DNA from: a virus | Length of the DNA stretch: 64,000 nt | Reading direction: 5' to 3' (one strand) | IMG/VR virus record: IMGVR_UViG_3300050821_017216 | Location: 32,001 to 96,000 of that record | Shown: one piece after another, positions 3,176 through 15,939 of the stretch | Position numbering within the stretch: the first letter of the stretch is position 1 | How the letters are laid out: every line of letters begins with the position of its first letter | Position numbers and translations under genes: made by a program | Notes under the pieces: model-generated | The model's database searches: none | The model's input: the letters and a program-made list of their open reading frames with translations, nothing else | What the model was told of the DNA's origin: nothing

Positions 3176-3388
3176 TCAGCTCTTGTGTCTCCCGTCTACG
3201 ACAGCCCGCACGAAGTCGTCGCCGCTCATCCGGTCGAACGCCCCGCACGTCGGCTGCGCGTGCAGGAGGTGCCCTGGGTCGTCAGGCGGGTCGCCCCACC
3301 GGACCGAGACCGCGCGCCCGCAGTACGGGCACCGACCGTCCACGTCCGACCTGACCACCTCGCCCCCCGACCGGTCTCCGTCAGCCAC
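3176..3388 (-). CDS. Hypothetical protein
   Basis: GTG start overlapping the primase stop; CPYC and HAQPTC. Confidence 0.5.
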   Translation of the reverse strand: MADGDRSGGEVVRSDVDGRCPYCGRAVSVRWGDPPDDPGHLLHAQPTCGAFDRMSGDDFVRAVVDGRHKS

Positions 3389-6300
3389 TCGCGCCTCCCT
3401 TCCCTCGTACGAACCGCATCGCGTCCCGGATCCGCTCGTCGGGCCAGCCCCACTCGGTCGCGACGGCCCGCGGGTCCCCGGCACCGCTCAGCGTGGCCTG
3501 GTGGAGCGCCTGGCCGTCCGCGCGCGCCTTGGACTGGCGGTGCTTCGCCAGCGCCCGGGCCCGCCCAGCGCGTGCCTCTGGCCAGCCCAGGGTCTTCGTG
3601 GTGGCCCGCCACTCGGACTCGTCTAGGTCGAAAAGCACGGACGAGTCCGCCTCCGTCTGCTCGTCCGCCGTGGGCTGGCGAGGTGTGGCGGGTGTGGCGG
3701 AGTGTTTTTCGAGGTGTGGCGGAGGCTCCGCCACACCTCCGTCTCTATAGTTACCGTCAGTTAGACCACGTGTGGCGGGTGTGGCGGGTGTGGCGGAGCT
3801 ATTTCCGCCACTCCCCCCCGGTGTGGCGCGTGTGGCGCCATCACTAGGGGGTATGGGGGATTTTTTTGGACCGCCCATCACACACCGATCGGTAGGTAAG
3901 TCACCACCGTCTGAGTCTGGTTGCGGGGCGTACTGCCCCGACGGGTAGTGCTTCAGGTCCTTCGGGTTGCTCCTGTCTACGGTGATGGTGTGTGACACGC
4001 TCTCACAATAGGAGATCGCGGCGTCAGCCCGGTCCTTTCCACACTCGCCCATCGCGGCGGCCATCGACGCCCGGAGCTGACGCGAACCGATCCCTGGCGA
4101 CCGTGAGACGACCCTCAGGCACGCGTCCCGGTCCCGGGCGCGCTGCTGCTCCTTCGAGTCCGCGGCGGCGGCTCGCCGCTGGGCGACCTCCTCCTCGGCC
4201 TGCCGCCTCTCCTCCTCCTTCTGCTGCCTCTTCTGCTCCTTCGACCGGTCGGCCTTGCTGAGGGCCTCGACGACGGCATCCCCACCGTCCCTGGCGGGCT
4301 CGTACCGGAAGCCCGTGAAGTGCATCGGGGTCCACCGCGCCCCCGTCGCGCGCCCCTTGGCGGTGACGAAGACGACGCTCTCGCCCTGGCCGTCCACGTA
4401 GGTGTCCGGGACGCGCGACAGGACACTGACGCTGTCGGCGCCGTACTCGATCTCGCCGCTCTCCTTGCCGAGGCCGACGAGGACGTCCGGGATCGTGACG
4501 CGCCGGTTGACCAGGCGGTCCTTGTCGTAGTCCCAGCTCAGGTCGGCGCTCATCACCATCGGCCAGAGCCCGTACTTGTCGCGCGCGACGGACGCGACGA
4601 CGAGGATCGCGATGTTGTGGTGCGTCGCCACCTCGCGCAGCGCGTAGGCGGCGCGCCCGATGCGCTCGCGCAGGTCGAGCGTCTTGTACTTACCGTCCTC
4701 GTCCTCCTCCGGGCCGACGATCTGGAGGTAGTCGAGGACGATCAGGATCGGCCTCGACCCGGGTCCGCCGGAGTTCAGCGTCTCGGACGGGGGCGGCTCC
4801 GGGTACTTCTGGCGGAGCGCGGCGGCGAGCGCGTGCACCTTGCTCGCGGGCCAGCCCATCGGGTTGCGGTTGACCGGGTGCAGCGGGAGTTTCCCAGCCT
4901 TCGCTTTCTCTGCGAGTTCGATCGCGACCGTGGCCGCGCGCTCGAGTGCGTCCTGGCTGGTCTGACCGGTGTAGAGGTCGCTCCACCGGAGCTTCGCCTC
5001 CTCGCCGACCACGCGCAGGTCGAACTGGAGATCGTCCATCTCGAGGCCCACGTAGGCCGTCGGGACGCCCTGCTCGGCGGAGTGCTTGCAGATCTGCAGG
5101 ACCGCGGCGGTCTTGCCGACCCCGGTGCCCGAGCAGAGGATGTGCAGCCCCGGCCACAACCCCCCGCCGAAGTGCTCCTTGAGATCGCCCCACGGCAGCG
5201 GCACCGGCTTCTCGATCCCGACCGATCGCCGTACGGCGCGCGCGACGGATGTCTTGAGGTGCTCGCCGATGGTGGGCGCCCACTTGTCGAGGTCGTCTTG
5301 CTCGGGCCCGGCCGGCGCGGCGGGGAGGGGCGGCTCGGCGGCCTGCGAGTGGGTCGGGGCGCCGACGACGAGTTCCAACCCGAACCGGTCGCTGATCGCG
5401 ACGACCGCCTCGCGCGCGGCGACGTGGTGGACCTCCATGACGAGGTCGATGTTCGTTCTGAACCCGGCGCGCCCCTTGTCCTTGCAGCGGTTGTGGTGGC
5501 ACTTCAAGCCGTGGTTGAGGATCGAGACGCCGCTCGTCTCGCCGCAGCCCGGGCACGTGACCTCGCCGCTCGCGTTGTATAGGCCCAGCCACTCGGCGAC
5601 GGCCTGCGGGTCGACGGAGTTCGCGAGCGAGTACGGCGAGTCCGGGTTGTCGCGCATCGGCGACACGACGCTCGGCGCCGCTGCCGGCTGCAGGCGCGAC
5701 CCGAGGACGCCGAACGCCTTCTCCATGGCGGCCCGGCCGTCGGGGTTCAACCCGTCCCAGACGGTGCGCGCGAGCTCGACGATCCGCGCCAGCGAGAGGC
5801 GCGTGACCGCCTCGGGCGTCACGATGGCGGTGCGCCGGTGCGGGCGGTCCTCGACGCCCGCCGCGCCCTTCTTCTTCAGGGTCCCGCACGCGGGCAGGAT
5901 GCGCTTGGCATCGAAGAGCTTCTCGTCGACCGACACCTCTGGCGTGTTGAAGAGGTGAGCCAAGCCCGTGAGCAGCCCCGCTATCGCGTTCTTCGACTCA
6001 TCAGTCACCGGCACCGCGTCGAGCGCGACGTGGATCTGCCGGCCGTTGCCCGAGTGCAGGTACGCGAGCGAGCTCTCTCCGTCGAGGTGGTGCGCGAGGA
6101 AGTTCCACGCGCTCTGCGCGACGCGCACCGACCGCTGCACCTCCTCGTCGGTCGCCGAGATGCCCGACGGGCGCTTGACGTCGAAGTCGATCGCCAGGAT
6201 GAGTCGCGCCTCGACGTCCGAGTCGGTCGTGCCGGCGCCCTTCTGGATGTCAAACCAATGACCCGGCGCGGCGTTGCGCGACTCGACGCCGGCGCGCAGG

Positions 6301-6674
6301 CGCGCGGGCAGGAGGTAGGTGCCGTGCGCGATCCACGTGTCTGCGGCCGCGCAGAGCAGGACGGCCTCCTCGGGGCTCCGAGCGTGCGAGGCGCGCGTGC
6401 GCTCGAACGAGTCGGTCGGGTAGCGCCTGAATCCCAGCACCTGGAACTCGAACACCCTCTCACCACCACCCACGAACGCGAGCTGGCGGCGCAGGTTCGC
6501 CTCGAGCCCCTCCGCCTGCGCGCGGAGAAGGCGATCCTCGAGCGGGGCGCTCTCGGTCCCGGACGGCCCGTCGCCAGACCCACCCCCACCGGACCCGGAT
6601 CCAGTCTTCTGCTCCGCTACGAGTTTCCAGAAATCTCCCGAGGAGATCCGCTCGTAGCCGTCGTCCGACATCAC
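3381..6674 (-). CDS. Primase-helicase fusion: AEP/RepB'-like primase, Zn finger, DnaB/RecA-like P-loop helicase
   Basis: AIDFDVK, HSGNGRQIH and DAKRILPACGT (AEP motifs); CPGC...CHHNRC; Walker A GTGVGKT; Walker B ILIVLDYLQ; low-complexity C-terminal tail. Confidence 0.8.
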   Translation of the reverse strand: MMSDDGYERISSGDFWKLVAEQKTGSGSGGGGSGDGPSGTESAPLEDRLLRAQAEGLEANLRRQLAFVGGGERVFEFQVLGFRRYPTDSFERTRASHARSPEEAVLLCAAADTWIAHGTYLLPARLRAGVESRNAAPGHWFDIQKGAGTTDSDVEARLILAIDFDVKRPSGISATDEEVQRSVRVAQSAWNFLAHHLDGESSLAYLHSGNGRQIHVALDAVPVTDESKNAIAGLLTGLAHLFNTPEVSVDEKLFDAKRILPACGTLKKKGAAGVEDRPHRRTAIVTPEAVTRLSLARIVELARTVWDGLNPDGRAAMEKAFGVLGSRLQPAAAPSVVSPMRDNPDSPYSLANSVDPQAVAEWLGLYNASGEVTCPGCGETSGVSILNHGLKCHHNRCKDKGRAGFRTNIDLVMEVHHVAAREAVVAISDRFGLELVVGAPTHSQAAEPPLPAAPAGPEQDDLDKWAPTIGEHLKTSVARAVRRSVGIEKPVPLPWGDLKEHFGGGLWPGLHILCSGTGVGKTAAVLQICKHSAEQGVPTAYVGLEMDDLQFDLRVVGEEAKLRWSDLYTGQTSQDALERAATVAIELAEKAKAGKLPLHPVNRNPMGWPASKVHALAAALRQKYPEPPPSETLNSGGPGSRPILIVLDYLQIVGPEEDEDGKYKTLDLRERIGRAAYALREVATHHNIAILVVASVARDKYGLWPMVMSADLSWDYDKDRLVNRRVTIPDVLVGLGKESGEIEYGADSVSVLSRVPDTYVDGQGESVVFVTAKGRATGARWTPMHFTGFRYEPARDGGDAVVEALSKADRSKEQKRQQKEEERRQAEEEVAQRRAAAADSKEQQRARDRDACLRVVSRSPGIGSRQLRASMAAAMGECGKDRADAAISYCESVSHTITVDRSNPKDLKHYPSGQYAPQPDSDGGDLPTDRCVMGGPKKSPIPPSDGATRATPGGSGGNSSATPATPATRGLTDGNYRDGGVAEPPPHLEKHSATPATPRQPTADEQTEADSSVLFDLDESEWRATTKTLGWPEARAGRARALAKHRQSKARADGQALHQATLSGAGDPRAVATEWGWPDERIRDAMRFVRGKGGASG
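3683..3838. repeat. Iteron-like array (GTGTGGCG[G/C] x8 direct, x2 inverted), candidate replication origin
   Basis: Direct copies at 3683, 3692, 3714, 3770, 3779, 3788, 3821, 3830; inverted at 3728 and 3805; 13-bp stem hairpin at 3711-3739. Confidence 0.7.
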
Positions 6675-9506: not shown

Positions 9507-9962
9507 GTGAAGCACCTGACCCACCACTTCTGGCTCACCGACGACGGTGCCACGCTCTGCGAGCCGTGCGGGGCGACGTACCGCGCCTCCGTATCCGAGG
9601 TGATCGCGTTTTCCATGTTCATAGAGCGCCACCGCGTGTGCGGGCAGCGCACTCAGAAGGTCGCGATCCCGTACAGGGTAATCCCGAACAAGCCCGAGCG
9701 TACTGCCGCTCCCGCCGTCGACGTGCAGTCGATCGTCGATCATGCTGACCTGGCGGAGCACTACGCGCGCGCGTGTCGTGGCGACAAGACGCGGGCCCTG
9801 CTCATGGCGCTCGACGCCGGGTTCGACTTCACGCGCGTCGTGGGGGCGTTCGGCAACGAGGGGGTCGCGATCTCGTTCCAGTGCCTGCTCAACGGGTGGA
9901 TCGATCGGGGGCGGATCACCGACGCGGGTAGGGTCAAACTTCAGATGGGAGCGGACGCGTGA
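9507..9962 (+). CDS. Hypothetical protein
   Basis: Coupled gene run. Confidence 0.6.
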   Translation: MKHLTHHFWLTDDGATLCEPCGATYRASVSEVIAFSMFIERHRVCGQRTQKVAIPYRVIPNKPERTAAPAVDVQSIVDHADLAEHYARACRGDKTRALLMALDAGFDFTRVVGAFGNEGVAISFQCLLNGWIDRGRITDAGRVKLQMGADA

Positions 9963-10222
9963 TCATCGCCAAGACAGTTGAACCACCGCCAGGCAAGCGC
10001 GTCGGGCAGGGCGGTCAAGTCGAGTGCGACCACCCGAAGCGGCGCGGCCCGCTCACTCCCAAGTGGGACCTGTACCAGCGAGAGGGTGACGTCTGCGACG
10101 CGTGTGGGTGGAGGGAGGCCCTGCCGATGCGGGTGTTCAGTGAGGACGGCAGCTCGGAAGAGGTCAACGCCGTCGACTTCTTTCGCTCGGTGATCGCCAA
10201 GGAGCGAGGTGACGGGTCGTGA
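9959..10222 (+). CDS. Hypothetical protein
   Basis: GTGA overlap; CxH...CxxC. Confidence 0.6.
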   Translation: MIIAKTVEPPPGKRVGQGGQVECDHPKRRGPLTPKWDLYQREGDVCDACGWREALPMRVFSEDGSSEEVNAVDFFRSVIAKERGDGS

Positions 10223-10473
10223 CCAACGTCGACAAGGCGCTCTTGTTGTCCGAATGGGCTGGCGTCCACGGTGTGGACGCCGACGCGTGCTGCCCGTGCT
10301 GCGAGGCGTACGTGTGCACCGGCAAGCGCCACGAGCCGAACTGCCCGATGGATCTCGCGTTGTCCGAGCGCGGGTACTGCGTGCAGGAGGAGCGGGAACG
10401 TGCGCGCGACCACATCTTTCGCGGCGAGGCCGCTACCGCGCCGACGCTGCCGCCGAGCGGGGAGGACCGATGA
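10219..10473 (+). CDS. Hypothetical Cys-rich protein
   Basis: GTGA overlap; CPCC...H.P.C. Confidence 0.6.
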   Translation: MTNVDKALLLSEWAGVHGVDADACCPCCEAYVCTGKRHEPNCPMDLALSERGYCVQEERERARDHIFRGEAATAPTLPPSGEDR

Positions 10474-10787
10474 CGCGCGAGGTGTCGAGCGAGGCGGTCG
10501 TTGGTGATGTCGGCACCGTCGATCGGTTCATGGAGCGCTTAGCGGGGCAAGCTACGGAGCTCGACGGGATGCTCGGGAGCCTGTCGGGGATCCTCGCGGA
10601 GATCGGCGGTATCAAGGACGCGATCGTGTCGGTGGATCACCGGCAGGCGCGCGTGTCGGGGTACCTCAGGCAGACCGCAGATCGGATGCGGTACATCGCG
10701 CGTAAGGAGCGCGGCGTGCGCAAGCGCGACCTGGTGCTCGGGATCCGGCGACTCACTGAGTTGGCCGATCGTTTGGAGCGCGAGTGA
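10470..10787 (+). CDS. Hypothetical coiled-coil protein
   Basis: ATGA overlap, GGAGG RBS. Confidence 0.6.
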   Translation: MTREVSSEAVVGDVGTVDRFMERLAGQATELDGMLGSLSGILAEIGGIKDAIVSVDHRQARVSGYLRQTADRMRYIARKERGVRKRDLVLGIRRLTELADRLERE

Positions 10788-11002
10788 GGCGCCGCCGAAC
10801 TTCGCTCGAGGAGCGGCTGGCGTGGGACCAGTACGCCGCCGCGTGGGCGGTCGCGCTGGGGTTCACCCACCAGCACCGCGAGGACGGCGAGGAGGACCCG
10901 CTGACGGCCGCCGAGTACGCCGACGACATGCTCGCCGAGCGCAGGAAGCGGTTCGGGCGCGCGCGCAAGGCGGCGCGGCGCACCGCGGCGAGGCTGCACT
11001 GA
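10784..11002 (+). CDS. Hypothetical protein
   Basis: GTGA overlap; WDQYAAAWA...ADDML.ER. Confidence 0.55.
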   Translation: MRRRRTSLEERLAWDQYAAAWAVALGFTHQHREDGEEDPLTAAEYADDMLAERRKRFGRARKAARRTAARLH

Positions 11003-11022
11003 AAGGGTTAGAGGTCAATACC

Positions 11023-11532
11023 GTGGCGAAGTTCAGACTGAAACCGACGCCGGTCGATGCCGTCCAGCTCCGCTGGGACACCTGGGGCGACGTGTGCGAA
11101 CTCATCGGCGCACCGGGAGGCCTCAAGGAGGGTCACCCCGAGGGCTGCTATGTCGATCAGGACGGCGAGGAGACCGACGACACGAACGGTCGCATCGGGC
11201 TCAAGATCCCGCGCTCCATCCACGGCGTGGACGGTCATGAGATCGCCGTGCAGGATGACTGGATCGTCCGGATGAGCGGCGAACTGGTGGTCCATAGCCA
11301 CGCGAGCTTCACGTCGCTGTTCGAGTCGCCCGCCGACTACGCGGTCGCCTACGAGCCGGACTGGGTCAAGTACCCGAAGCTCGCCGCCGCGCTCGCAAAC
11401 CGCCCGCCCGAGTACGGGCAGGAGCTCCGCGCGCTGCTCGTCGACGCGCGCGCCGACGCCGTGCAGTACGTCCGCGACGTGCGGGCCGACGAGCTGGCCC
11501 GAGCGAGAGAGAGCGGGAGGGGCGAGCGATGA
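11023..11532 (+). CDS. Conserved phage protein (KFRLKP..VDAVQ type)
   Basis: N-terminus and DWIV.....L....F..LFE pattern common in phages. Confidence 0.6.
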   Translation: MAKFRLKPTPVDAVQLRWDTWGDVCELIGAPGGLKEGHPEGCYVDQDGEETDDTNGRIGLKIPRSIHGVDGHEIAVQDDWIVRMSGELVVHSHASFTSLFESPADYAVAYEPDWVKYPKLAAALANRPPEYGQELRALLVDARADAVQYVRDVRADELARARESGRGER

Positions 11533-11951
11533 CCGCGCGGGTCGCCGGGCTCCCGGTGGGGGCTCTCGTGAGGCGCGACGCGATCCACCCCGCGATGCGC
11601 GAGGCGCTCGGCGCCTTCGAGGTGCTCCGCCGGTTCGGCTTCGAGTCCGACGACATCTTCTTCCACCAGAACGCGGAGGAGGTCCCCGGGCGCGAGCCGA
11701 AGGGGATGATGTTCGTGGTGCTCAAGACGCAGGGCAAGGACTTCTCGATCCGCGTGGGCGTCGTCGACCTGCCCTACGAGGTGTGGATCGAGGAGTGGAC
11801 AGCCGTCGCGACCGCCGCCGCCGAGAAGCGGATCGTCGGGGTCGATCGGATCGTAGATGAGAGCTTGGCGCGCAGCGAGATGGTGGGGCTGCTTCTGGCG
11901 ATCCATGGAAAGGGGATCCGTGTCCCCGTCGCCCAGCTGGGTCTCTCTTGA
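11529..11951 (+). CDS. Hypothetical protein
   Basis: Coupled gene run. Confidence 0.6.
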   Translation: MTARVAGLPVGALVRRDAIHPAMREALGAFEVLRRFGFESDDIFFHQNAEEVPGREPKGMMFVVLKTQGKDFSIRVGVVDLPYEVWIEEWTAVATAAAEKRIVGVDRIVDESLARSEMVGLLLAIHGKGIRVPVAQLGLS

Positions 11952-12331
11952 GCCAGCTCTCGTTCTTCGGCGCACCGCCACCCAAGCCACCGGCGGATCT
12001 ACCGCCTGCGGCAGTCGCGATCCTGGCCGCCGCCAGGTCGCTGGCTTTCACGACGCGGGTCACTCGCGGCTGCTGGGGCGTGGCTGTCGGCGTCAAGCGC
12101 CGGTGGACGCTGCGTTGGGACCGCTGCTGCGCGCTCGGGGCCTACCTCGTCGCCGTCGAGGCGGTCGCCGGACCGAGCGAGCAGTCGCCGCGCGCGACCG
12201 TCACCCGACTGCTCGGGTTGACCCACGATCAGGTCACCGCGTTCACGCGCGGGTTCGACGGGTTGCCGGGCGACGGTTCGGAGTGGTACCGGTACGGCGC
12301 GCGGGTCGCGGAGGAGGTCATTACCCCATGA
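11948..12331 (+). CDS. Hypothetical protein
   Basis: TTGA overlap; CCALGAYL...F..GFD. Confidence 0.55.
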   Translation: MSQLSFFGAPPPKPPADLPPAAVAILAAARSLAFTTRVTRGCWGVAVGVKRRWTLRWDRCCALGAYLVAVEAVAGPSEQSPRATVTRLLGLTHDQVTAFTRGFDGLPGDGSEWYRYGARVAEEVITP

Positions 12332-12771
12332 GCGATGATGAGAGGTCCGCTATCGAGACGGTCGTGCGAGCGCCAGACCCGTATGTGACCGTGAGCCTGC
12401 CGGGCGTGCTGCTGGTCAGGGAGACCGAGATCGGGGCGAAGGTGCTGCGGTCGGCGCTCAACGGGCTGTTCGAGCGGCTCGGTGACCGAAAGGTGTCGAT
12501 CGCTTTGACGACGCTCGATCCGCCAACGTACGCCGAGGGTGCCAAGATCGACGACGGTGTCACGCTGCTGCGATCGGCGTTCGGTGCTGACGGCAACGAA
12601 CCGATGGAGGAGGCCGCGCGGCGCGTCGTGCGCGCCTACGTCAACCGGGACAGCCGAATACCTACCGCGCGAGACGCCGTCATCGAGGCGGCCATGATCG
12701 TCTGCCGCCCGGGACCCAGCTGGAACGTCGAGGAGGCGTGCGCGGTCCTGCGTCGCACGGGTGTTCCGTGA
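12328..12771 (+). CDS. Hypothetical protein
   Basis: ATGA overlap. Confidence 0.6.
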   Translation: MSDDERSAIETVVRAPDPYVTVSLPGVLLVRETEIGAKVLRSALNGLFERLGDRKVSIALTTLDPPTYAEGAKIDDGVTLLRSAFGADGNEPMEEAARRVVRAYVNRDSRIPTARDAVIEAAMIVCRPGPSWNVEEACAVLRRTGVP

Positions 12772-13076
12772 CGGGGGTCGAGATCATCGCCGTAGCGTGC
12801 GGCGCGAGCGTCGTCGGTGTCGCGGTCATCGTGAAGTCGACGCTCGACTTCGCCCGGTGGACCCTCACCGAGGACCGCCTGAGCGACCCGGTCGAGCGTA
12901 GACGCGCGGAACTCAAGCGCAGGTGCGTGGAACTCGAGCGCCGACGCAAGGAGCTCGTGACCAGGAGCGCGCACGAGGTGGCTGGGGCAGATACCTGGAA
13001 CAAACTCAACGAGTACATCAACCAAGTCGACCGGCAGATCGACGAGTTGGACAAGGCGGCCCAGGACACACCATGA
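12768..13076 (+). CDS. Hypothetical membrane-anchored coiled-coil protein
   Basis: N-terminal hydrophobic helix. Confidence 0.6.
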   Translation: MTGVEIIAVACGASVVGVAVIVKSTLDFARWTLTEDRLSDPVERRRAELKRRCVELERRRKELVTRSAHEVAGADTWNKLNEYINQVDRQIDELDKAAQDTP

Positions 13077-13264
13077 CTCCCGCTCGCGCCATGCACCAAG
13101 ATCTATGGTCGGCCCTGCGCAGGGTGCGGGACGGTGAACTCCCAGGGAGTCCTGGGTTGCGGGACCTGCTCATCGAGCGCGGGCTCATCGAGTGGGTCCC
13201 CGGTGAGTCTGGACTCCGCCTAACGGCCAGTGGTGTTCGCGTGATACAGAAAGAGGGCCGGTGA
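13073..13264 (+). CDS. Hypothetical protein (winged-helix-like)
   Basis: L..RGLIEW......LT..G pattern. Confidence 0.5.
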   Translation: MTPARAMHQDLWSALRRVRDGELPGSPGLRDLLIERGLIEWVPGESGLRLTASGVRVIQKEGR

Positions 13265-13327
13265 CCGCGAGTGGACCGAAGTATCCTCTACGCCGTCCGC
13301 GACCGTACGTCGACCGGAGGAACCCAC

Positions 13328-13510
13328 ATGCTCAAGACCGCAATCGCCACGATTCTCGCCATCGTCGCTGTCGCGAACTGCCAACCGCCGCGCGCGACTT
13401 ACATCGAGTGCGGAAGCGGCCTGCGCTGTCCGATCAACACCGTGTGCGGTGGCGGTCCGTACGCGATCTGCGGGCCGGGCGCGTGCTGTCCGGTGAGTGG
13501 AAGTCCGTGA
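13328..13510 (+). CDS. Small Cys-rich exported (lipo)protein
   Basis: Signal-like MLKTAIATILAIVAVANC followed by further Cys residues; GGAGG RBS. Confidence 0.55.
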   Translation: MLKTAIATILAIVAVANCQPPRATYIECGSGLRCPINTVCGGGPYAICGPGACCPVSGSP

Positions 13511-13559
13511 CGGCTGGCGACGATCACTCCATGGCGAGACCGGTCCCTCGATCCCTCAA

Positions 13560-15898
13560 GGCGAGGTCGTCGAACGAGCCTCGCGGATGCTCACTCGCGA
13601 GCTGCGAGTCGCGGCGAACGGTCGTGTAAGTCCTGGTTCATCGAGTCGAGGTTGAAGAACGACCTCGCTGGACTCGTATCGTTTACCGTCCGCTTGCCAG
13701 GTCGAGGTCGTCGATCGACCTCGTCGTACCGACAGCCATCGCTCTTCTTCCAGAAGGCGAACCGCTACTAGTCGAGGCCGCCGATCGGTCTCGCTGTCGT
13801 ATCGACTGCCCCAGAATTGCAGCTCCATCTCAGGTCGAGATCGACGATCGACCTCGCTGTCATTCCGACTCGTGCCGCAGCGGCAATCTACCTCTCTGGC
13901 GTGGAGTGTCGAGGTCGTCGATCAACCTCGCTGGCGTTACAACGGCGCAGGTGCTGCACGTCAAGGTCGTCGGTCGACCTCGCTGTCCCCGCGCCTACCT
14001 GCCGGCCCCGCTTGTGTCGAAGTCGTCGATCGACTCCGCTGTCGTCGCGACACACCGCCGACGTACGCGATACGTCGGAGTCCTCGATCGGCTCCGCTGT
14101 CGTCGCGACGGCACGGCGGGCGCTGTTGCGCGCCCTGGTGGGAGTCGGAGTCTTCGATCGACTCCGCTGCCGTCGCGACCGCGCGGTGGTCGTCGAGCGC
14201 AGCTTACGGTGGGACGTCGCGACATGGTTGCGGTGTCTACGCAACTGACTCCGGCGGAGACGTCGGAGTCTTCGATCGACTCCGCTGCCGTCGCGACCCT
14301 CTGGACGGTCTGCATACCCGTAAGGGGACCCGTCACGACCCAATCGCGGCGCCGCCTAGCGCGCCACTGGCTGCGGTCGGAGTCTTCGATCGACTCCGCT
14401 ACCGTCGCGACGCGCCACGTGGTGCCGGGCCACTGGCACGACATCCCGTCGGAGTCTTCGATCGACCCCGCTGTCGTCATAACCTCTAGCTTCTTCGAGT
14501 GCGCGTTCGTCAGCCGCGTGTCGGAGTCTTCGATCGACCCCGCTGCCGTCGCGACGGGCCGGCAAAATCCACGGCGTCGGAGTCTTCGATCGACTCCGCT
14601 GCCGTCGCGACCGATGCCCAATCGGCCTCGCTGGGGAAGCCGTAGTTCGCGTCGGAGTCTTCGATCGACCCCGCTGCCGTCGCGACTTCCGAACGCTAGG
14701 TTGATGCCAACGCCGACTACAGCGAGTCGGAGTCTTCGATCGACTCCGCTGTCGATGTCGACTGCGCTGAGCTGCATCGGAGTCTTCGATCGACTCCGCT
14801 ACCGTCGTGACAAGGCGCATCGCCATGGAACCCCGAGTCGAGGTCGTCGATCGACCTCGCAGTCGTTCCGACTTACGCGGCGATCCCGCGAAGGTTCCAA
14901 TCGTAGTCGTCGAGGTCGTCGATCGACCTCGCAGTCGTTCCGACCGCGGCCGCGCGCGCAGTATGAGCGGGGCTCGCCGTGTCGAGGTCGTCGATCGACC
15001 TCGCTGTCGTTCCGACTCGAGGTCACAGTCGAGGAGTTCGAGGGAAGAACTCGTCGAGGTCGTCGATCGACCTCGCTGTCGTTCCGACCCGCGTCTGGCA
15101 CCGCCAGCTCGGCGTTGCACTCCACCGGTCGAGGTCGTCGATCGACCTCGCTGTCGTTCCGACATGCGCATCGTCCGGTTGCCCTTGAGCAACGTGTACG
15201 TGTCGAGGTTGTCGATCGACCTCGCTGTCGTTCCGACAGTACGCCTGCGGCGGCGGAGGAGGCGGGGCGAACTGGTCGAGGTCGTCGATCGACCTCGCTG
15301 TCGTTCCGACCTGCGTCGGCAGCGCCAGCACGTCGACGTCGTCGTGGTCGAGGTCGTCGATCGACCTCGCTGTCGTTCCGACGTCGCGCCGAATGCGCTT
15401 CGCAACGGAGCCCTTGTATCGAGGTCGTCGATCGACCTCGCTGTCGTTCCGACCCTGGAAGAGTTTTCGCGCAAGTTTCGCAGGAAGGGTGTCGAGGTCG
15501 TCGATCGACCTCGCTGTCGTTCCGACGGTGCTCTTGAGCGGGCCCAGTTTCTGCTCGACCTGCTGTCGAGGTCGTCGATCGACCTCGCTGTCGTTCCGAC
15601 CTTGCGAAGTCGCCAACGCTTTTGCGCTCGCACACGGCGTCGAGGTCGTCGATCGACCTCGCTGTCGTTCCGACAGCGCGTGGACGCGAAGATGAGCGAG
15701 CGCGAGCGCCAGTCGAGGTCGTCGATCGACCTCGCTGTCGTTCCGACGATGTGAGCGAGTGAGGGGAGACGGGAACTGACGGTCCGGGGTCGAGGTCGTC
15801 GATCGACCTCGCTGTCGTTCCGACGTCGCCGCCGTGACAACGGGGGCCTCCGTCCCGCTCTTGTCGAGGTCGTCGATCGACCTCGCTGTCGTTCCGAC
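13560..15898 (-). CRISPR. CRISPR array of about 35 repeat units, two 36-bp repeat families; probably transcribed on the minus strand
   Basis: Family A (minus GTCGGAACGACAGCGAGGTCGATCGACGACCTCGAC) x15 at 14837-15898 with 35-41 bp spacers; family B (minus GTCGCGACGGCAGCGGAGTCGATCGAAGACTCCGAC) x10 at 14074-14811, two 8-nt remnants, A/B hybrid at 14016; about 7 degenerate A-type repeats at 13560-13995. Confidence 0.97.
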
Positions 15899-15939
15899 AG
15901 GTAACGTTATGTTGTCAATGATCTTGTAGGCTTACCGAC
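15899..15939 (-). promoter_or_regulatory. Short AT-rich CRISPR leader
   Basis: 41 bp between the cas stop and the first (consensus) repeat; repeats degrade away from this end. Confidence 0.6.

Follow-up and report, generated by a model that had tools for sequence, protein, structure and literature searches.

Two stem-compensated repeat families in one CRISPR array of an uncultured soil phage with a Cas12m-like effector

Compensatory base changes in the stems of CRISPR repeats were reportedly described between arrays by Kunin, Sorek and Hugenholtz in 2007. The closest described relatives of the locus analyzed here are the type V-M systems of MmCas12m2, GoCas12m, and MsCas12m (PMC10442227, PMC11013384; PDB 8hhl, 8pm4, and 23vw). 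Cas12m proteins have been described with the RuvC arrangements D-E-D, H-D-D, or N-D-D; their repeats are predicted to form stems I and II, and the GoCas12m crRNA retains ~30 nt of the repeat (PMC11013384). In the Cas12m2 complex, the 36-nt scaffold is disordered over its first 7 nt, the stem equivalent to the one considered below is held through contacts with the sugar-phosphate backbone, and A(-2) and C(-1) are recognized base-specifically (PMC10442227).

The window, which is the whole 64,000-nt stretch of DNA that was analyzed, spans bases 32001 to 96000 of a 119,899-bp IMG/VR virus record (IMGVR_UViG_3300050821_017216) that CheckV rates as complete. It encodes a Cas12m-like effector, P0001. 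Residues 296–637 of this protein align with PDB 23vw_A, annotated 'CRISPR-associated DNA-binding protein Cas12m' (E = 6.4e-40), and the protein also matches GoCas12m (8pm4_A, E = 3.9e-16). A Cas12f1-like_TNB zinc ribbon is present (Pfam PF07282, E = 2.8e-9, 37.4 bits against a cut-off of 26.3), and the N-terminal 295 residues have no significant alignment to solved Cas12m proteins. The RuvC motifs of 23vw align with D382, E539, and D629 of P0001, residues that 24 homologues also keep, giving a D-E-D arrangement that falls inside the described Cas12m range (PMC11013384). Homologues P0003–P0025 are 50–77% identical to P0001. The window's phage has one Cas12-type TNB gene, and Cas1 and Cas2 are absent both from this phage and from the sister phage described below.

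The likeness to type V-M begins with this effector homology and includes the D-E-D arrangement, as found in some of the described orthologues, a repeat of 36 nt in which AC follows a stem close to the 3' end, and possibly a T-rich 5' flank, judging from the protospacers of one spacer. Unlike the solved systems, the present one is carried by a ~120-kb uncultured soil phage, probably of Polyangiales. Its effector, at 690 aa, also has a longer N-terminal half without alignment to the solved proteins, and its array mixes handle variants. By homology, the locus is assigned to type V-M (Cas12m) as an ordinary, phage-borne member. The mosaic array is best read as a genuine outcome of ordinary array evolution and not as a new kind of system.

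There is a single CRISPR array, located on the minus strand at window positions 13562–15898 and 41 nt downstream of the cas12m-like gene, in which 32 repeats of 36 nt were parsed (Table 1). From the leader, the order is 15 uniform A repeats (block A1), about 11 decayed B repeats, with two more reduced to scars, and 6–7 degenerate A-like repeats. The sequence-only reading had placed the array at 14016–15898; repeats do occur at the positions it gave, and the array continues left to 13645, with a remnant beyond. Three separate arrays with leaders of their own were ruled out, as no leader-like sequence occurs between the blocks. Covariance model R1 detected no solitary repeat copies outside the arrays, either in the window or in the sister phage. 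The leader aligns with that of the sister phage, and the TTGACA box is conserved in both. Scanning the leader for sigma-70 promoters gave no complete one, and co-transcription of the array with cas12m is therefore possible. No terminator was found in the array, and the only internal promoter match was a weak one at 13912.

Table 1. Features of the CRISPR locus, with positions in the window
Feature	Position	Strand	Description and basis
cas12m-like effector gene P0001, 690 aa	15940..18012	-	PDB and Pfam homology
Leader	15899..15939	-	Less G+C-rich, from cas12m stop to first repeat; TTGACA at 15918-15913
Block A1	14837..15898	-	15 near-identical A repeats, spacers 35-41 nt
Junction spacer W15, 25 nt	14812..14836	-	Between a non-chimeric B and a non-chimeric A repeat
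Block B	14074..14811	-	10 B/B' repeats, irregular spacers 14-82 nt
Collapsed B repeat scars, 8 nt	14216..14223 and 14332-14339	-	GTCGCGAC, GTCACGAC
Spacer W20	14484..14519	-	Matches IS1-like transposase gene of Polyangiales genomes
Hybrid repeat	14016..14051	-	Mixed A/B states, G.U stem pair
Block A2	13645..13995	-	6 degenerate A-like repeats, spacers 16-38 nt
Last decayed repeat remnant	13562..13584	-	Stem-loop only; partial covariance-model match 13.8 bits, E 0.13 (weak); sequence inspection

The two oldest units of A1 (14837 and 14909) have a private U at -25 in common. Repeats of block A2 have covariance-model scores of 34–48 bits, and their consensus stem and loop are identical to those of A1. 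Within block B, B repeats occur at 14144, 14262, 14376, 14576, 14726, and 14776, with a near-B repeat at 14074, and three repeats (14448, 14520, and 14651) are of a further type, B', with the stem arm CGGGGUC and a G.U at pair 4. The 8-nt scars divide 'spacers' of 82 and 78 nt into 36 + 38 and 34 + 36 nt. These are normal spacer lengths, and thus two B repeats have collapsed through deletion between short internal direct repeats, fusing the adjacent spacers.

Several open reading frames lie elsewhere in the window. At 3381–6674 (minus strand), a 1,097-aa frame has a DnaB-like helicase C-terminal domain (E = 1.9e-12) and is probably a phage primase-helicase. The sister phage lacks the ~4 kb (9592–13644) that separates the array from the next gene common to both phages, and no open reading frame in the 4 kb to the left of the array gave a Pfam match. 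At ~13330–13510 (plus strand) there is a small, Cys-rich frame whose N-terminus is signal-like.

Repeat positions are numbered in the RNA sense from -36 to -1. Both stems proposed from the sequence alone are present: CGAGGUC/GACCUCG in family A (e.g., window:15863–15898, minus strand) and CGGAGUC/GACUCCG in family B (e.g., window:14144–14179, minus strand). The families differ at 8 of 36 positions (-32, -31, -27, -21, -20, -10, -6, and -5). The main stem has 7 bp, formed by -23 to -17 with -9 to -3, and its arms change together as had been claimed, with -21/-5 going from A-U to G-C and -20/-6 from G-C to A-U (pairs 3 and 4). When 8 random substitutions were simulated, at least two compensated pairs with an intact stem arose with a P value of about 0.0014. 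All 32 repeats, even the decayed ones, are predicted by RNAfold to form the stem, and every B repeat has the full stem and the AC end. The repeat at 14016, previously described as a hybrid, is genuinely intermediate: it has B states at -32, -31, -21, -20, and -6, A states at -27, -10, and -5, and a G.U at stem pair 3. The repeat adjoins the guide at its 3' end and is laid out like the Cas12m2 scaffold (PMC10442227), displaced by 1 nt on the 5' side.

An alignment of 25 repeat variants (24 distinct) from three arrays, those of the window, the sister phage, and contig C770 of the Polyangiales MAG G678, was used to examine covariation. Among the 24 distinct variants, 97.6% of stem cells are paired, and four of the seven stem pairs change on both sides. 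Pair 3 alone has six pair types (A-U, G-C, C-G, G.U, U-A, and U.G). None of 500 shuffles reached the covariation score of the stem, and sliding one partner by 1–3 columns lowered pairing to 21–49%. The stem is strongly supported by covariation. The sequence-only reading had also proposed a 5' mini-hairpin in which GUCG-N3-CGAC becomes GUCG-N3-CGGC. That change is present in the sequence and 85% of the mini-hairpin cells are paired, but the mini-hairpin is unsupported, because its changes are one-sided only (U-A or U.G) and more distant relatives lack it. Pairing in the main stem persists through sequence change on both of its sides, as in the compensation attributed to Kunin, Sorek and Hugenholtz. 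Unlike in their 2007 account, the variants and the G.U intermediates adjoin here in one array, and again in that of a relative, and both forms go with nearly the same effector.

The relative's array, on G678:C770, is of the same repeat family and has a graded series of compensated stems, in order CGCGGUC, CGUGGUC, and CGCAGUC with GACUGCG, followed by CGUGAUC with GAUCACG. It lies at L111:1100–1826 (minus strand) at the contig end, so cas12m is not visible there. Another contig of the same MAG (C321, locus L103) encodes a 53%-identical Cas12m with a different repeat. Two repeat variants each are found in the relatives L093 and L103, and the arrays of L104, L105, and L108 are uniform. Exact tandem duplications occur in two of these relatives, of a repeat-spacer unit at L105:2991–3134 and of a repeat fragment at L093:292–353; the two variants of L093 are arranged in blocks. 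As in Streptococcus agalactiae type II-A arrays (PMC4466440), old units decay and repeat variants mark ancestry. The array of the window differs from these in that its middle block diverges at 8 positions in a coordinated, structure-preserving manner and its leader end returns to the older type.

Family-B arrays with their cas genes had been proposed as something to be found in related phages, and one of B' type was. A protein-guided scan of IMG/VR yielded one 60,787-bp sister contig (IMGVR_UViG_3300044904_000188), recorded from two samples, which is syntenic with the window's phage over its whole length at ~73–97% nucleotide identity. Its Cas12m differs from P0001 by scattered, mostly conservative substitutions (93% identity), and next to a homologous leader it has an array in which all 22 repeats are B' (one with a single change); the spacers measure 35–40 nt, and a decayed tail is lacking. 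None of these 22 spacers recurs among the 32 spacers of the window's array; the sister phage is therefore a relative of the donor type and not the donor itself. No spacer of either array targets either phage. Two pairs of identical spacers occur in the sister array (locus L085: 8588–8622 and 8952–8986, 9098–9133 and 9460–9495), each five units apart with the intervening units not duplicated. The sister phage also has a 417-aa TnpB-type open frame (G003:C1:26355–26552, locus L098; TNB match E = 4.7e-24) with no strong counterpart in the window's phage.

Pattern searches of other collections were used to look for further arrays of either family. Exact A and B core patterns had no match in the viral contig collection, and a broader family pattern there returned the two records of the sister phage and four single chance matches only. 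Single matches to the cores in metagenome and genome contigs were rejected as chance hits in GC-rich coding DNA, with no arrays among them. No A-type array was found outside the window's phage in the viral, metagenome, and genome collections, and the array had no match among the INPHARED phages.

One spacer of block B has a protospacer match. W20 matches an IS1-like transposase open reading frame (Pfam DDE_Tnp_IS1) in at least two Polyangiales genomes, with 2 mismatches in 36 at L112:1502–1537 (5' flank CTTC) and 3 mismatches in 36 at L115:1501–1536 (5' flank CTTT), and two further genomes match at 89% identity. The flanks, from one spacer and two protospacers, would fit the T-rich PAM of type V. 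The match points to a putative myxobacterial host and to mobile elements as likely targets, and the phage host is probably Polyangiales. Relatives of Cas12m were found in 8 of the 401 Polyangiales genomes searched. No A-block spacer has a convincing target. Weak matches to the array in 132 of the 401 genomes, W20 excepted, were discarded as noise, mostly from GC-rich stretches of repeat plus spacer; genomes G735 and G726 have weak matches of this class only.

Independent assemblies bear on the integrity of the array. Run X1, a soil data set that may come from the source sample, contains a 16-kb Logan contig with 100% identity to the window over 13400–14173, connecting A2 through the hybrid repeat to the first B repeat. 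The two flanks and the A and B pieces are all covered at ~12x. A different study (X2) also yielded parts of the A2 and B blocks, at 95–99% identity. No RNA run containing the locus was found. The proximal junction (14806–14837) is unbridged among the pieces listed, and A1 is mostly without contig cover, as expected for k-mer contigs over identical repeats and not evidence either way. Other X1 contigs match as far as A-repeat edges (14873, 14909, 15350, and 15851) and continue into unrelated sequence; they may represent other spacer contexts of A repeats in the same soil sample.

The two junctions of block B differ in form. The distal junction is graded from old to new: five B and three A states at 14016, six B states at 14074, and full B at 14144. 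The proximal junction is abrupt, with all 8 diagnostic positions switching between 14776–14811 and 14837–14872 across the 25-nt spacer. Such a pattern could come from an assembler joining co-occurring strains with A and B arrays, a concern raised by the sequence-only reading. The data are from a metagenome assembly, similar soils contain B'-type relatives, the spacer at the proximal junction is abnormally short, this junction is unbridged among the pieces listed, and the loose X1 ends beside A repeats suggest other A-repeat contexts in the sample. Nevertheless, the longest identical run between A and B is ~9–10 bases, too few for a k-mer join, the junction falls within a unique spacer, and the contig of a second assembler crosses the distal junction without differences. 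Equal rather than additive depth on the flanks and both blocks argues against two mixed strains. We therefore consider a chimera very unlikely, with independent bridging at the distal junction and not at the proximal one. At least one recombination between arrays is needed, because a return from B to A by point mutation would require six or more exact reversions, which is not credible and was rejected. Since the join lies inside a spacer, it was illegitimate and not repeat-mediated. This upholds the recombination part of the earlier proposal that the B block was captured from another array, but the graded distal junction means that the newcomer may instead be A1. The A1 block is favoured in that role, because one event then suffices and the graded distal side is explained.

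The history that we find on balance probable is that of a type V-M array which drifted from A to B, then acquired A1 by recombination, and later lost parts of B to decay. During Cas1-Cas2 integration, each new repeat is copied from the leader-proximal one. This template would drift stepwise, with G.U wobble pairs bridging each stem change, so that the oldest units would be A-like and would lead through the intermediates at 14016 and 14074 to B. An abrupt join inside the junction spacer would then place A-type units at the leader end, which would require recombination with another A-type array, and B would decay afterwards by deletions, two repeats being reduced to their scars. Several observations count against this history. 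The proposed A donor is hypothetical, given that no A-type array was found outside the window's phage in the collections searched, and no spacers are in common with the sister phage. Strict serial templating would not lead one to expect the interspersion of B and B' seen in block B, decay at 13960 is too advanced for that repeat to serve as an intermediate, and neither phage has Cas1-Cas2 by which units could have been added. An unseen A donor would not be required if block B were the immigrant, arriving from a B-type phage together with the intermediates of that donor's own trailer and splitting an original array into A1 and A2. B' arrays do exist at the orthologous locus of the sister phage, and A1 matches the stem and loop consensus of A2. 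We regard this course as rather unlikely, as only one junction is abrupt and the other, distal one has intermediates at 14016 and 14074, decay is far more advanced in A2 than in A1, which would make the two halves of very different age, and none of the 22 sister-phage spacers is in common.

Drift followed by acquisition of A1 would leave A and B as interchangeable versions of one handle. The array would be transcribed on the minus strand from the leader adjoining cas12m, and each 36-nt repeat would supply the 5' handle of a crRNA, consisting of a 13-nt 5' segment, the 7-bp stem with a GAUCGAN loop, and a 3' AC. The families differ in three places: the two stem pairs changed on both sides, the loop-closing position, and the 5' segment. 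Judged against the Cas12m2 complex, these are sites at which Cas12m should be indifferent. As the AC end and the GAUCGA loop are identical in A and B, one Cas12m would be expected to process and load both handles. The strongest argument that P0001 can use both is that a B-type handle is the sole partner of a nearly identical effector at the orthologous locus. Of the two options in the sequence-only reading, one effector reading both scaffolds is the likeliest, because neither phage has Cas1 or Cas2 and there is one Cas12-type gene here. A second effector in trans, from the host or from another phage, would suit a phage that lacks adaptation genes and already depends on outside functions, with no direct support beyond that. 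It seems extremely improbable given the one Cas12-type TNB gene in the window's phage, the coupling of B' with an orthologous Cas12m in the sister phage, and a pattern search of 185,579 species genomes that gave no A- or B-type arrays. It is also conceivable, and in our view decidedly unlikely, that only A handles are used and that the B and A2 blocks, whether transcribed or not, are relics no longer processed or loaded by P0001. Block B is indeed decayed, with spacers as short as 14–25 nt, two collapsed repeats, and private point changes; it lies at least 1.1 kb from the leader, with the weak internal promoter match as the only one of its kind. Yet every B repeat has kept its full stem and AC end, and a 93%-identical Cas12m, separated from P0001 by scattered and mostly conservative substitutions, depends on B' alone.

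The mosaic is a natural experiment on what Cas12m needs of its handle, in which nearly the same protein meets stems that differ at two base pairs, and the G.U intermediates preserved within the same array add to it. It is likewise informative about the gain and loss of guides in phage CRISPR arrays that have no adaptation genes. Turnover here would involve inter-array recombination, deletion within repeats, and possibly borrowed integrases. We put forward tentatively, as a doubtful generalization, that phage Cas12m arrays lacking Cas1-Cas2 are renewed mainly by block exchange between co-infecting relatives, with the handle read by its shape. If so, any compensated stem would work, and such arrays would preserve, as ordered fossil records, a neutral compensatory evolution that passed by way of G.U intermediates, and would be a natural source of handles that are not identical yet interchangeable. 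If A, B, and B' are interchangeable, they would provide ready-made, non-identical repeats for multiplex Cas12m arrays, which should recombine less than arrays of identical repeats.
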